A stretch of DNA of 6,069 bases, taken from the IMG/VR virus record IMGVR_UViG_2713896896_000013. The stretch is one strand, 5' to 3'. The notes beneath the pieces are model-generated. The model was not told the origin of the DNA and ran no database searches. It saw only the letters and a list, made by a program, of their open reading frames with translations. The DNA comes from a virus. Lineage: Duplodnaviria; Heunggongvirae; Uroviricota; Caudoviricetes. Below, piece by piece: positions 2,483-6,069 of the stretch; the stretch's first letter is position 1; each line of letters starts with the position of its first letter. Both the position numbers and the translations under genes were made by a program.

Positions 2483-2570
2483 AGTGGGAATACACTAAAC
2501 ATAAGCCCGGCCATCATAGCGTTTTGCTGGCTGGTGGGCAATGTGATCAGTGTGGTGGCTTGCTGGTGGG

Positions 2571-2750
2571 CTATTCCTGTTCTTTGGCCTTGCGGCGCTG
2601 GCGGCGTTTGATCTCGCCTTTTGCGGCAGTAACTAAAAAACCGGCTGTACTTTCGCCAGGTTCTTTAAGTTGCTCAATATCATCCATTACTTCATGTGGG
2701 ATTCTGACAGTTGTCATTTGTGATTTTGCGTTCTTTGCACCAGTTGCCAT
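2571..2750 (-). CDS. Small ribbon-helix-helix-like DNA-binding protein (59 aa), putative transcriptional regulator
   Basis: Minus-strand ATG at 2748-2750 preceded by a strong SD AGGAGA (complement of 2758-2763) with a 7-nt spacer; stop TAG (complement of 2571-2573). Product: MATGAKNAKSQMTTVRIPHEVMDDIEQLKEPGESTAGFLVTAAKGEIKRRQRRKAKEQE. The pattern is a short beta-strand (TVRIP), helix, loop, helix and a basic tail, as in CopG/Arc-type RHH proteins. The 114-aa version in the ORF track adds a non-protein-like N-terminus with no RBS. Confidence 0.5.
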   Translation of the reverse strand: MATGAKNAKSQMTTVRIPHEVMDDIEQLKEPGESTAGFLVTAAKGEIKRRQRRKAKEQE

Positions 2751-2939
2751 TTCTGGATCTCCTAAAAATTGGTGTATGTCAGTATACGCAAAAAAAATGA
2801 TAAAAAAAGGCTTGAAGTGTATTTCACCAGTGAGTAAATTAAAAAGCAAAGGTGAAATACACCTGAAAGAGCAACGCCCCGCAGTGCTCGCAACACATGC
2901 AGGGCGTCTAACCACAAACCGTTAACAGGAGTAACGATT
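2751..2939. promoter_or_regulatory. Divergent promoter/operator region between the RHH-like gene (minus) and the icd-like operon (plus)
   Basis: Candidate + strand sigma70 promoter: -35 TTGAAG (2812-2817), 17-bp spacer, -10 TAAATT (2835-2840). Perfect 12-bp inverted repeat GTGTATTTCACC (2817-2828) / GGTGAAATACAC (2851-2862) with a 22-bp spacer, overlapping the -35/spacer and the predicted start region. Candidate minus-strand -10 TATACT (complement of 2781-2786). The promoter hexamers are weak-to-moderate matches only. Confidence 0.35.
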
Positions 2940-3137
2940 ATGGCTGTAAAACAGCATACCCCACGCCTAGCGCACACACAAACCGCCTTTGTATGGCGTT
3001 TTCTGGCACTGAGTGCCGGAGAATCCCAGATCATCCACGTCACCGCATGGACGGAACGCGAAGCGCGTAACCGTTGCCCGTCCGGCTGTATTGCCGTATT
3101 CGCTGCCCGTATCCGTCAGGGGGTGTGCCATGCCTGA
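2940..3137 (+). CDS. Small protein (65 aa), tentatively Icd-like (host cell division inhibitor Icd family)
   Basis: ATG at 2940 with SD AGGAG (2927-2931) and an 8-nt spacer; stop TGA at 3135-3137. The translation MAVKQHTPRLAHTQTAFVWRFLALSAGESQIIHVTAWTEREARNRCPSGCIAVFAARIRQGVCHA recalls the signature I remember for Icd-like small proteins of P4-like islands (F-W-R-F-x-A ... E-x-E-A-R ... F-A-A-R). The family assignment is from memory, not a search. Confidence 0.55.
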   Translation: MAVKQHTPRLAHTQTAFVWRFLALSAGESQIIHVTAWTEREARNRCPSGCIAVFAARIRQGVCHA

Positions 3138-3450
3138 TATATCAAAATACCAGTACCTGATTAATCCGCATTTTAACTGTGAGCATGATATTGCTAAAAA
3201 GGTTTATTCCGCTGCGGATATGGCTACTGACAATATATCAATGGGTATTGCATCAATTGGTAACCTGATGTGGCATGCGGCAGAAAATGAGGACTATGAC
3301 GAACAGACCATGCGCATTGACATGGGGAATATTGGCTTGTTACTGGCAATGCTTGGGCAGTTTGATATTTCGTTACGGTGCACCATTGAAAATGCCACAG
3401 ATGCATTAAATGCCATAAAGAAAGCGAATACTGATTCAAATCGGGGATAA
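3130..3450 (+). CDS. Hypothetical protein (106 aa)
   Basis: ATG at 3130 overlaps the upstream stop by 8 nt (ATGCCTGA), implying translational coupling; stop TAA at 3448-3450. Product MPDISKYQYLINPHFNCEHDIAKKVYSAADMATDNISMGIASIGNLMWHAAENEDYDEQTMRIDMGNIGLLLAMLGQFDISLRCTIENATDALNAIKKANTDSNRG is acidic with no motif I recognise. The longer track ORF from 3013 would overlap the icd-like gene out of frame and is not favoured. Confidence 0.6.
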   Translation: MPDISKYQYLINPHFNCEHDIAKKVYSAADMATDNISMGIASIGNLMWHAAENEDYDEQTMRIDMGNIGLLLAMLGQFDISLRCTIENATDALNAIKKANTDSNRG

Positions 3451-3456
3451 ATAATC

Positions 3457-3756
3457 ATGAGAACATATTTATCTGGCTTGACTGCCAGCGGTTATGCACA
3501 CCCCAAAATTATCCCCGGCGCTATTTATCTGGATAAGAACGGTAACAGAGTAACGGTAAAAGAACTGATGTTTGATCGTGTTTATTTTATCCGTGATGGA
3601 TATTCATTTCTTAGTTCGCTGAACGTGGAGATCTTTATTTGCAGATTCCGGCGGGAAATCCCGACTTCCAGAAATAACCATGTGTCACGTGTGGATGTGG
3701 ATAAAAAACTACAGGAACTGAAAAACATGATTGCCGCGTGGAGAGAGCAGAAATGA
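3457..3756 (+). CDS. Hypothetical protein (99 aa)
   Basis: ATG at 3457 with an SD-like GGGGA about 10 nt upstream. Its stop TGA (3754-3756) overlaps the ATG of the replication gene (3753-3755) in an ATGA arrangement. No recognisable motif. Confidence 0.6.
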   Translation: MRTYLSGLTASGYAHPKIIPGAIYLDKNGNRVTVKELMFDRVYFIRDGYSFLSSLNVEIFICRFRREIPTSRNNHVSRVDVDKKLQELKNMIAAWREQK

Positions 3757-5570
3757 AAAAAGCGCCAAATTTAAAACACCAGCCGCGTGACAAAATGACG
3801 GAAGTCATCATTTTTGCGGGTAGTGATGCGTGGGCACATGCGAAACAGTGGCAGGAACAGGACGGGCGACTGGCTGGCGATAACGTCCCTCCTGTCTGGC
3901 TTGGAGAGCAACAACTTGCCGAACTGGACAACCTGCAAATCGTACCGGACGGACGCTATCGCGTGCGTCTCTATCAGGCGGGGTTATTGCGTCCGGGGCT
4001 TGTTAATACCATCGGGCAGAAACTGGCAGCGGCAGGTGTCAGGGATGCTGATTATTATCCTGAAGGAATGCACAGCCAGAAACGGGAGAACTGGCGCGAA
4101 TATCTGGAACGTGAGCGGGGAGAGCTGGCGGAAAAGAAAAAGGTAGTTGAACTGCCTGTAAAGAAAAAAGAGCGGGTAAAAGACGATAACGCTTCATCAC
4201 TGGCACTTAACCAGATGGGAGCAAGTCAACGCGGCGAAGTTCTCCTGGCACATTATGGCGGTGAACTGGCGATTCATGCTGACTCTGACACTGTTCACCA
4301 TTACAACGGCGTTGTATGGGAGCCAGTACAGGATAAAGAATTACAGCGAGCTATGGCACAGATTTTCATTGATGCGGAGATCAGCTATTCGCAGAACGCC
4401 ATTAAATCGGCGGTCGATACCATGAAGTTAAGTTTGCCTGTTATGGGGAATACAGCCCGTAACCTGATTGGATTCAGTAACGGGGTATTTGATACCAGAA
4501 CAGGTAATTTTCGGGAGCATAACAAAAACGACTGGTTGTTAATTGCCAGTGAATTACCTTTCAGCCCACCAGCAGAGGGGGAAACGCTGGCAACACATGC
4601 GCCGAATTTCTGGAAGTGGTTACGCCGTTCGGTGGCTGAGAATGACCGCAAGGCGGATCGCGTACTGGCTGCATTATTCATGGTGCTGGCGAACCGGTAC
4701 GACTGGCAGTTATTCATTGAGGTAACAGGTCCAGGGGGAAGTGGTAAAAGCGTGATGGCGGAGATTTGCACCATGCTGGCGGGTAAGGCCAACACAGTAT
4801 CGGCAAGCATGAAGGCGCTGGAAGATGCAAGGGAACGCGCGTTAGTGGTTGGCTTTTCGCTGATTATCATGCCGGATATGACCCGCTACGCTGGTGATGG
4901 GGCAGGAATTAAGGCCATTACAGGCGGTGACAAGGTGGCAATTGACCCAAAACACAAAGCCCCCTACTCAACGCGTATTCCGGCAGTAGTGCTGGCGGTT
5001 AACAATAACGCCATGTCATTCAGTGACCGCAGCGGGGGGATCTCACGTCGTCGGGTGATATTCAATTTTTCGGAAGTTGTACCGGAGAACGAACGCGATC
5101 CAATGCTGGCGGAAAAAATAGAAGGTGAGCTGGCGGTAGTGATTCGCCATCTGCTTACACGGTTTGCTGACCAGGACGAAGCCAGACGCCTGTTATATGA
5201 GCAGCAGAAATCTGAAGAAGCACTGGCGATAAAGCGAGAGGGGGATTCGCTGGTGGACTTCTGCGGCTATCTCATGGCGTCGGTAATGTGTGATGGCCTG
5301 TTAGTGGGTAATGCTGAAATTGTGCCATTCAGCCCACGCAGGTATCTCTATCATGCCTATCTGGCTTATATGAGGGCACATGGGTTTGGTAAACCTGTAA
5401 CACTGACGCGCTTCGGTAAAGATATGCCGGGGGCAATGGCGGAATATGGCAGGGAGTATATGAAACGGAAAACGAAGCACGGTTTGCGTTCAAACGTGAC
5501 ACTGACGGAGGAATCAGAAGACTGGATGCCATCATGTGTATCGGTCACTAATGACGATAGCAAAAATTAA
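3753..5570 (+). CDS. Replication initiator with D5_N-like region and SF3-type P-loop helicase domain (P4 alpha-like / PICI Pri-Rep-like primase-helicase family)
   Basis: 605-aa ORF from ATG 3753 (the track gives a GTG 5 codons upstream at 3738). Walker A motif GPGGSGKS in FIEVTGPGGSGKSVM; candidate Walker B hydrophobic run plus Asp in LVVGFSLIIMPDM. The segment IGFSNGVFDTRTGNFREHNKNDW resembles the D5_N motif that precedes SF3 helicase domains in P4-family primase C-terminal-domain proteins. It is immediately followed by an iteron array. Stop TAA at 5568-5570. Confidence 0.88.
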   Translation: MKKAPNLKHQPRDKMTEVIIFAGSDAWAHAKQWQEQDGRLAGDNVPPVWLGEQQLAELDNLQIVPDGRYRVRLYQAGLLRPGLVNTIGQKLAAAGVRDADYYPEGMHSQKRENWREYLERERGELAEKKKVVELPVKKKERVKDDNASSLALNQMGASQRGEVLLAHYGGELAIHADSDTVHHYNGVVWEPVQDKELQRAMAQIFIDAEISYSQNAIKSAVDTMKLSLPVMGNTARNLIGFSNGVFDTRTGNFREHNKNDWLLIASELPFSPPAEGETLATHAPNFWKWLRRSVAENDRKADRVLAALFMVLANRYDWQLFIEVTGPGGSGKSVMAEICTMLAGKANTVSASMKALEDARERALVVGFSLIIMPDMTRYAGDGAGIKAITGGDKVAIDPKHKAPYSTRIPAVVLAVNNNAMSFSDRSGGISRRRVIFNFSEVVPENERDPMLAEKIEGELAVVIRHLLTRFADQDEARRLLYEQQKSEEALAIKREGDSLVDFCGYLMASVMCDGLLVGNAEIVPFSPRRYLYHAYLAYMRAHGFGKPVTLTRFGKDMPGAMAEYGREYMKRKTKHGLRSNVTLTEESEDWMPSCVSVTNDDSKN

Positions 5571-5581
5571 ACTTATGGAAT

Positions 5582-5815
5582 AACTGTTCACCACTGTTCA
5601 CCCTGTCATAAATATCTTTTATATCAGTATATTATAGGGTGAACAGTTGTTTATGAACTGTTCACCAAACTATTCACTGTTCACCTTTTTGATTGTTTAT
5701 TGAGCTTCAAGGGTGAACAGTGGTGAACAGTTGGTGAATAGTTTTTGTGAAACTGTTCACCCCTTAACATTATGAATTAAAAGAGAAAATATCAAAAGGT
5801 GAACAGGTGAAGGGT
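5582..5815. repeat. Iteron array, candidate replication origin (9-mer GGTGAACAG / CTGTTCACC, both orientations)
   Basis: CTGTTCACC at 5584-5592, 5594-5602, 5658-5666, 5677-5685 and 5753-5761. GGTGAACAG at 5638-5646, 5712-5720, 5722-5730 and 5798-5806, plus a degenerate GGTGAATAG at 5733-5741 and partial copies (ctgtca 5603-5608, ctattcac 5670-5677, ggtgaaggg 5806-5814). Tandem copies are phased at 10-11 bp. AT-rich stretches at 5606-5637 and 5762-5797 could act as unwinding elements. The core octamer TGTTCACC is, as I recall, the alpha-protein binding iteron of the P4 ori and crr. Confidence 0.75.
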
Positions 5816-5892
5816 TAAAACGCAAAAATTTTAATTTACTGCTGTGAGATAAAGCCTATGACAGCGAAGCACACCAAAACAACAGGAGGGGA

Positions 5893-6069
5893 ATGATGAT
5901 CCGTACGGGGATAACATACCGTTTTAAGCAACGAGTGACAGAAGCCGGAGCAATCCGGCTTTTTATGGGTCCTCCCGGTGTAGTGACCTGCCACGGGGCG
6001 GGAGCGGCGCGGAAAAAGGCTGGTTTTTGCATTTTCATGGCGGCGGCAGCATGTGTGATAATTTATTGA
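5893..6069 (+). CDS. Small hypothetical protein (58 aa), tentative
   Basis: Strong SD AGGAGG (5884-5889) followed by tandem ATGs at 5893 and 5896; in-frame stop TGA at 6067-6069, exactly the last three bases of the window. Product MMIRTGITYRFKQRVTEAGAIRLFMGPPGVVTCHGAGAARKKAGFCIFMAAAACVIIY. It is below the 60-aa cutoff of the ORF track. A terminator-like hairpin lies inside it, which lowers confidence. Confidence 0.35.
   Translation: MMIRTGITYRFKQRVTEAGAIRLFMGPPGVVTCHGAGAARKKAGFCIFMAAAACVIIY
5941..5966 (+). terminator. Terminator-like hairpin with GNRA loop and U-tract on the + strand
   Basis: Stem AGCCGGA (5943-5949) / TCCGGCT (5954-5960), extendable by an A-T pair (5942/5961), with loop GCAA, followed by TTTTAT (5961-5966). 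It lies inside the tentative small ORF, so it may be an attenuator, the 3' end of a short transcript, or coincidental. Confidence 0.3.

Follow-up and report, generated by a model that had tools for sequence, protein, structure and literature searches.

A two-unit iteron array 3' of rep as the probable replication origin of an Escherichia coli phage-inducible chromosomal island, and its relation to ori and crr of P4

PICIs (phage-inducible chromosomal islands) are phage satellites, and in their Gram-negative members, according to Fillol-Salom et al. 2018, ISME J (PMC6092414), the replication origin sits immediately 3' of the initiator gene. According to the same study, the rep-ori segment of EcCICFT073 keeps a thermosensitive plasmid at the restrictive temperature, and rep or ori mutants fail to do so. 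The Rep proteins of the staphylococcal pathogenicity islands (SaPIs) are self-loading superfamily 3 (SF3) helicases; the winged-helix domain at their C terminus binds the iterons, which are arranged about an AT-rich centre directly downstream of rep (PMC9371898). In the satellite phage P4, the cis replication region (crr) lies directly 3' of the alpha gene and ori 4.7 kb upstream of the alpha stop codon, and in the GenBank entry, ori (9310-9413) as well as crr (4291-4590) carries TGTTCACC under the name 'ori type 1 repeat'. It is part of the general background on P4, in line with this annotation and with PMC2777425, that alpha binds the type I iterons, loops the DNA and replicates it bidirectionally. 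Here, we describe an iteron array in a 6,069-nucleotide stretch of DNA (hereafter the window) from the virus record IMGVR_UViG_2713896896_000013 (Caudoviricetes), which represents an Escherichia coli PICI, a phage satellite of the EcCICFT073/EcCI224 family. Comparison with the systems named above indicates that the array is probably the vegetative replication origin of this island, a reading to which we give a probability of about 0.88.

The array, at 5584-5814, contains nine exact copies, one copy with a single mismatch and two degenerate copies of GGTGAACAG/CTGTTCACC (Table 1). A scan of both strands for GGTGAACAG with at most one mismatch returned 13 matches across the window, 10 of them within 5584-5806, against a chance level of 1.22 +/- 1.06 (maximum 5) in 200 dinucleotide-preserving shuffles of the window. 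The start-to-start distances of the iterons are 10, 44, 20, 11, 8, 35, 10, 11, 20, 45 and 8 bp, so that the tandem copies are phased at 10-11 bp, and most of the remaining spacings are near multiples of the helical turn. The stop codon of the replication gene rep ends at 5570 and the first iteron begins 14 bp further on. About ten copies in both orientations, a tandem phasing of 10-11 bp and a location immediately 3' of the replication gene had been proposed in a preliminary description of this DNA, and all three features were borne out. The AT-rich flanks that it had also mentioned need rewording, since an A/T tract does follow the array, but two AT-rich spacers, of 20% and 19% GC, lie inside it, each bracketed by inverted iterons. 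The sites are arranged as two units related by a symmetry axis at ~5699.5, about which paired sites mirror each other to within 1 bp, and the long inverted repeats given by a repeat finder correspond to this arrangement (I1/I2; 74% over 54 nt and 83% over 36 nt).

Table 1. Coordinates of the array, the rep gene and the cos sites; positions refer to the window unless a locus or amino acids (aa) are named.
Feature	Position	Strand	Details
rep ('DNA primase family protein', Pri-Rep of PICIs)	3753-5570	+	605 aa
Rep, TOPRIM-like N-terminal domain	aa 1-130		without catalytic residues
Rep, D5_N	aa 167-296
Rep, SF3 P-loop helicase	aa 330-454
Rep, C-terminal origin-binding winged-helix	aa 502-598
Putative origin unit A	5584-5685	-	iterons 5584, 5594; 35-bp spacer 5603-5637; inverted iteron 5638; iterons 5658, 5669 (degenerate), 5677
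Central spacer with symmetry axis	5686-5711	none	26 bp, between units A and B
Putative origin unit B	5712-5814	+	iterons 5712, 5722, 5733; inverted iteron 5753; 36-bp spacer 5762-5797; iterons 5798, 5806 (degenerate)
Iterons, minus strand	starts 5584, 5594, 5658, 5677, 5753	-	GGTGAACAG scan
Iterons, plus strand	starts 5638, 5712, 5722, 5733, 5798	+	GGTGAACAG scan; 5733 is GGTGAATAG, 1 mismatch
Degenerate iterons	5669-5677 and 5806-5814
A/T tract GTTAAAACGCAAAAATTTTAATTTACT	5814-5840	none	18.5% GC, after last iteron pair
Lambdoid cos site (cosQ-cosN junction)	5962-6012	+	alignment to lambda end junction; 92% identical to phage mEp460
Second cos copies	L001 15917-15989; L002 9258-9330; L085 10139-10217

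The protein encoded next to the array, whose start in RefSeq is the ATG at 3753, is a candidate initiator with its own helicase. A domain search assigned to it D5_N, an SF3 P-loop helicase domain and, at the C terminus, Pox_D5, and the C-terminal segment of Rep matches the origin-binding domain of P4 alpha (PDB 1KA8) with an E value of 1.8e-24. Over its whole length, Rep is 44% identical to P4 alpha and 49% identical to the Pri-Rep of EcCICFT073, the island in which the rep-ori function was assayed. The region 3' of EcCICFT073 pri-rep has the same layout as the window, site by site, with GGTAGACA/GGTAGATA iterons, and, as at the Gram-negative PICI origins, the array of the window stands immediately 3' of pri-rep with its spacers of 19-20% GC each enclosed by iterons. 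The two arrays differ in their iteron, which is GGTAGAC/TA in EcCICFT073 and GGTGAACAG in the window, and the C-terminal domain of the window Rep is P4-like.

The comparative set consisted of 80 loci encoding Rep relatives, obtained from a scan of one genome per species. In nearly all loci with a Rep of ~600 aa, a single cluster of 7-13 iterons starts +14 to +37 from the stop codon and mostly extends to about +215 to +260, a few clusters being shorter or split; no iteron cluster was found for locus L065, and the other ~600-aa loci have no further cluster within 8 kb. The site order is conserved as two iterons, a ~35-bp spacer, one inverted iteron and two or three iterons, followed by a spacer and the mirror image of the same series, and is kept in Klebsiella, Pluralibacter, Pectobacterium, Enterobacter, Yersinia, Edaphovirga, Serratia, Raoultella and Erwinia; the whole layout covers ~230 bp, and the ~35-bp spacer is AT-rich in most lineages. 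The sequence of the iteron is lineage-dependent (GGTGAACA, GGTAGACA, GGTGGAGA, GGCGGACA/GGTGGACA or GGTAGATA), and all sites of one array share the type of their lineage. A short segment of the C-terminal domain of Rep varies with it: iteron GGTGAACA is accompanied by KRKTKHG-LRSNVTL in the window (ungapped, EYMKRKTKHGLRSNVTL) and by KRHTKQG-IQTNLTL in P4, GGTAGACA by KRAKCTKGPDKGRVITNVLL, GGTGGAGA by IRKKSTKGNMRSNIRL, GGCGGACA by KKAESKKKATRGRIQSNITL, and GGTAGATA by LTRTIKGRRQTNVGI. This segment differs between types also by insertions of one and five residues; outside it, the domain shows high conservation among types A-D. About ten DNA sites and one protein segment thus change in concert while the layout stays fixed, as a cognate pair of initiator and origin predicts. 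By winged-helix topology, the co-varying segment should be the beta-hairpin wing. Among the longer relatives, the alpha genes of Xenorhabdus and Photorhabdus are followed on their 3' side by the complete bipartite array, and no cluster lies upstream of them. Three Pantoea and Serratia loci with an alpha of ~790 aa (L078, L080 and L082) have, as P4 does, just one ori-type unit, which is placed 4.3-4.4 kb upstream of the stop codon of alpha, and no recognisable crr-type array was found directly 3' of alpha at these loci.

The octamer of the array is identical to the P4 type I octamer TGTTCACC and occurs, as there, in both orientations, and the relationship of the array to P4 goes beyond the iteron. 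In blastn alignments, window 5711-5779 in unit B matched P4 ori 9309-9378 (79%, E 1e-11), window 5583-5666 in unit A matched the other strand of P4 ori, 9415-9331 (86 bp at 73%, E 7e-8), and window 5756-5828 in unit B matched both P4 crr repeats (73-76%, E 6e-7), so that the DNA homology reaches into the spacers. Each unit of the window reproduces the layout of P4 ori, namely two or three direct iterons, one inverted iteron, an AT spacer and two direct iterons. Read along rep, unit A is oriented as P4 ori and unit B as the crr repeats, and the two units adjoin head to head. P4 has one ori unit at a distance from the alpha stop codon and two direct crr units 3' of alpha, and a control scan of its genome returned three iteron clusters, whereas the units of the window are adjacent; where P4 requires in cis both a separate ori and a crr ~4.5 kb apart, the island has a single composite array. 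The type II repeats of P4 form no cluster in the window, where their matches are no commoner than in shuffles, and a full-text literature search for TGTTCACC returned unrelated primer sequences only. The P4-type motif of the preliminary description therefore stands as far as the octamer is concerned, but the positional equivalent in P4 is crr and not ori. Its proposal of an origin bound by the element's own initiator is supported by the helicase-initiator with its 1KA8-like domain, by the alignments to P4 ori and crr, by the EcCICFT073 layout, and by the joint change of the iterons and the DNA-binding segment across lineages. It had also suggested looking for the same 9-mer 3' of homologous genes in relatives; the clustered layout does recur there, but the iteron sequence changes by lineage.

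The position of P4 crr gives rise to the most serious of the alternative explanations, in which the array serves as no more than a cis enhancer of the crr kind or a copy-control (handcuffing) region, and another part of the island contains a separate origin at which replication initiates. It can draw on the alignment of unit B to the crr repeats, on the distance of P4 ori from its crr, and on the clusters 4.3-4.4 kb upstream of the alpha stop codon in some P4-like loci of Pantoea and Serratia. The complete element, however, a 10,790-bp circle, has one cluster only, at +14 to +227 from the rep stop codon; unit A aligns to P4 ori and is oriented relative to rep as ori is; and according to PMC6092414 the rep of EcCICFT073 together with its 3' region alone replicates a plasmid. 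We therefore consider an array confined to such an accessory role to be improbable. A secondary role in copy control, beside initiation at the array, is possible.

If the array is the origin, the C-terminal winged-helix domain of Rep would recognise the 8-9-bp iterons GGTGAACAG, and Rep bound to the dozen sites of the two mirror-image units would assemble into SF3 helicase hexamers. The mirror symmetry of the two units suggests one hexamer per unit as the simplest case, as at the palindromic origins of other SF3 helicases; the hexamers would presumably melt the AT-rich spacers, and outward unwinding would lead to bidirectional theta replication of the excised circle. The origins recognised by SV40 large T antigen and papillomavirus E1 likewise have palindromic initiator sites beside easily melted DNA, on which two hexamers act head to head, but this is an analogy only, as their DNA-binding domains and sites are unrelated to those of the Rep array. 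The SaPI origins work in a like manner: these also combine an SF3 helicase and a C-terminal winged-helix domain with short iterons 3' of rep, oppositely oriented around AT-rich DNA, and need no separate loader. The likeness is one of function: SaPI iterons are 5-6 nt long and unrelated in sequence, there is one central AT-rich region as opposed to two, and the hosts belong to another phylum. The array does not resemble a classical iteron plasmid origin of the RepA/pi/TrfA type, which has direct iterons of 17-22 bp, DnaA boxes and a WH1-WH2 Rep without a helicase, whereas the iterons here are 8-9 bp long and in both orientations, and Rep is an SF3 helicase.

Several observations weigh against an origin at this site or leave parts of the mechanism less secure. 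The case for this particular allele is one of sequence comparison, and the replication assay data come from its relative EcCICFT073. Of the primase motifs of P4 alpha, Rep has neither the zinc ribbon nor, in its TOPRIM domain, the catalytic Glu and DxD, and thus no active DnaG-type primase domain; with these motifs missing, the source of the primer is among the less secure parts. The AlphaFold2 model of the C-terminal domain has a pLDDT of 40, so that the assignment of the wing is based on topology only. No DnaA box with up to two mismatches was detected within 5571-5830 and no IHF (integration host factor) consensus was found in the array, which leaves no host-factor handle on initiation, although their absence fits a self-loading initiator. 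Finally, NZ_CP148328.1 (pZ1323HEC0475-3, L002) contains the entire island as a 10,790-bp circular 'plasmid' with an identical origin, a record that could be an assembly of excised circles and not a stable episome. The same record is also an indication from nature that the island may be autonomous; the matches at 100% identity to the integrase end of the island do not include the chromosome of this strain, other strains have the same island in the chromosome, beside yljB, and several stand-alone contigs of ~10.8 kb in read-archive assemblies carry the rep gene or the island. Helper-independent replication by Rep is plausible, with the reservation of the missing primase motifs.

The surroundings of the array contain several further features. 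Folding of the single-stranded DNA predicts hairpins in both units (z -4.8 and -2.7), but these arise because inverted iterons are present and are hence no independent evidence. In nearly all relatives, for example L010, L013 and L016, the last pair of iterons is succeeded by an A-run and then a T-run (in the window, AAAACGCAAAAATTTTAATTT), and a similar succession occurs in both P4 crr repeats (L003 4291-4310 and 4471-4490); it may bend the DNA, or serve as a promoter element or as the start of a primer. An iteron-like inverted pair inside rep, at 4260-4268 (plus strand, one mismatch) and 4291-4299 (minus strand, exact), was considered as a second site and rejected, since it is not kept in relatives of 75-79% identity and falls within the chance count; it is probably non-functional. 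Rfam and tRNA scans of the window gave no match, and a promoter and terminator scan of 5450-6069 gave one weak promoter-like match and nothing above shuffles. This last result bears on a second alternative, which holds that the repeats are mainly operators for Rep or another island protein and control rep or the downstream packaging genes. Iterons of plasmids often double as operators, and the array does lie between the early operon and the capsid/packaging module, yet the single promoter-like match is no more than shuffles produce, two units with AT-rich spacers are the origin layout of P4, EcCICFT073 and the SaPIs, and an operator array is a less economical explanation than an origin next to a helicase-initiator. 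A mainly regulatory function is accordingly very unlikely.

The identity of the host island is well supported by its relatives. Window 3096-6069 is 98.2% identical to EcCI224 (CP018948.1, 1961620-1972242), which is catalogued as a PICI in Table S1 of the study by Fillol-Salom et al. In E. coli chromosomes, where the segment is found, strain DETEC-P169 has an island of ~10.9 kb between nfeF and a tRNA-Ile gene, with the order integrase, 228-aa protein, AlpA-like helix-turn-helix (HTH) protein, YlcI/YnfO, Icd-like protein, hypothetical protein, DUF4222, 'DNA primase family protein', an unannotated gap of ~720 bp, protease-capsid fusion, tail assembly protein and DUF1441. The prototype E. coli PICI, EcCICFT073, has its genes in this order, and the islands of the EcCICFT073/EcCI224 type have in common with the window int, the alpA-like HTH gene, YlcI, Icd-like, DUF4222, pri-rep, ori and the packaging genes. 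As expected of a PICI, the element falls within the range of 10-12 kb and has int, an alpA-type regulator, unidirectional early genes, a cos of helper type and packaging-interference genes (L001, L002 and L085). The island differs from P4 in lacking type II repeats and the sid, psu, delta and epsilon genes by which P4-like satellites set capsid size and control the helper, which are not in the annotated element and in whose stead the protease-capsid fusion, the tail assembly protein and DUF1441 are found, and in a Rep devoid of the zinc ribbon and TOPRIM catalysis of alpha. Since the DUF4222 protein (3457-3756, overlapping the start of rep) takes the place upstream of rep that Cnr (ORF106), which regulates copy number, has in P4, homology between the two was considered; it was rejected, as the DUF4222 protein has no similarity to Cnr (BLASTP E 7.8).

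Comparison among islands indicates that the element is a mosaic carrying the EcCI224 replicon, because the integrase end of the window, with its int/att module, differs from that of EcCI224. The integrase half (1-2567) matches only the island of the DETEC-P169 type, at 97%, the replicon half (3096-6069) is 98% identical both to EcCI224 and to the plasmid-form island, and nothing in these islands matches the stretch between the halves, 2568-3095. The lambdoid cos site, with the cohesive-end core GGGCGGGAGCGG, is ~150 bp downstream of the array, which it bounds without forming part of it, and a second direct copy of cos lies ~3.3 kb beyond the first in the 10.8-kb island and ~2.5 kb in EcCI224. 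The proximity of cos is the one argument for regarding the array as an accessory part of a cos or pac packaging signal, the least likely of the alternatives, as the cos homology leaves out the iterons, the second cos copy of the element has no adjoining iterons, and in P4 and its relatives these iterons have no cos next to them.

Published work already covers this type of origin, the family of islands and the P4 iteron, and includes an island nearly identical to this one in its catalogue, and the finding is therefore already known in kind; its added value is comparative, consisting of the conserved palindromic layout, the specificity variants and the reading of P4 ori and crr, and it opens no new question. 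Three points may be new: the two-unit palindromic layout across the alpha/Pri-Rep family, including the full-length alpha of Xenorhabdus; the natural pairs of iteron and protein specificity; and the interpretation of P4 ori and crr as separated halves of the two-unit layout. The finding locates the probable origin of a phage satellite that is very common in E. coli: 972 of 5,426 complete genomes have a match at some level to the array plus the 3' part of rep. It is useful for annotation, the iteron motif provides a handle for finding related islands, and pairs of Rep and ori could be built as small orthogonal replicons. We also advance, tentatively and at somewhat less than even odds, a joint reading in which unit A, spacer and unit B 3' of rep would be the default origin of the alpha/Pri-Rep family, a design present both in the short PICI Reps and in the full-length alpha of Xenorhabdus and Photorhabdus, with its specificity set by one short winged-helix segment in at least five natural pairs; in the PICI Reps, primase chemistry would have been lost and only a dead TOPRIM domain retained, and P4 ori plus crr would be a split version of this origin. 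P4 ori would then correspond to one A-oriented unit and P4 crr to B-oriented units, and alpha, by looping the DNA, would restore the head-to-head pair, on which two SF3 hexamers could load in opposite directions. If true, this would explain the long-puzzling need of P4 for a distant crr.
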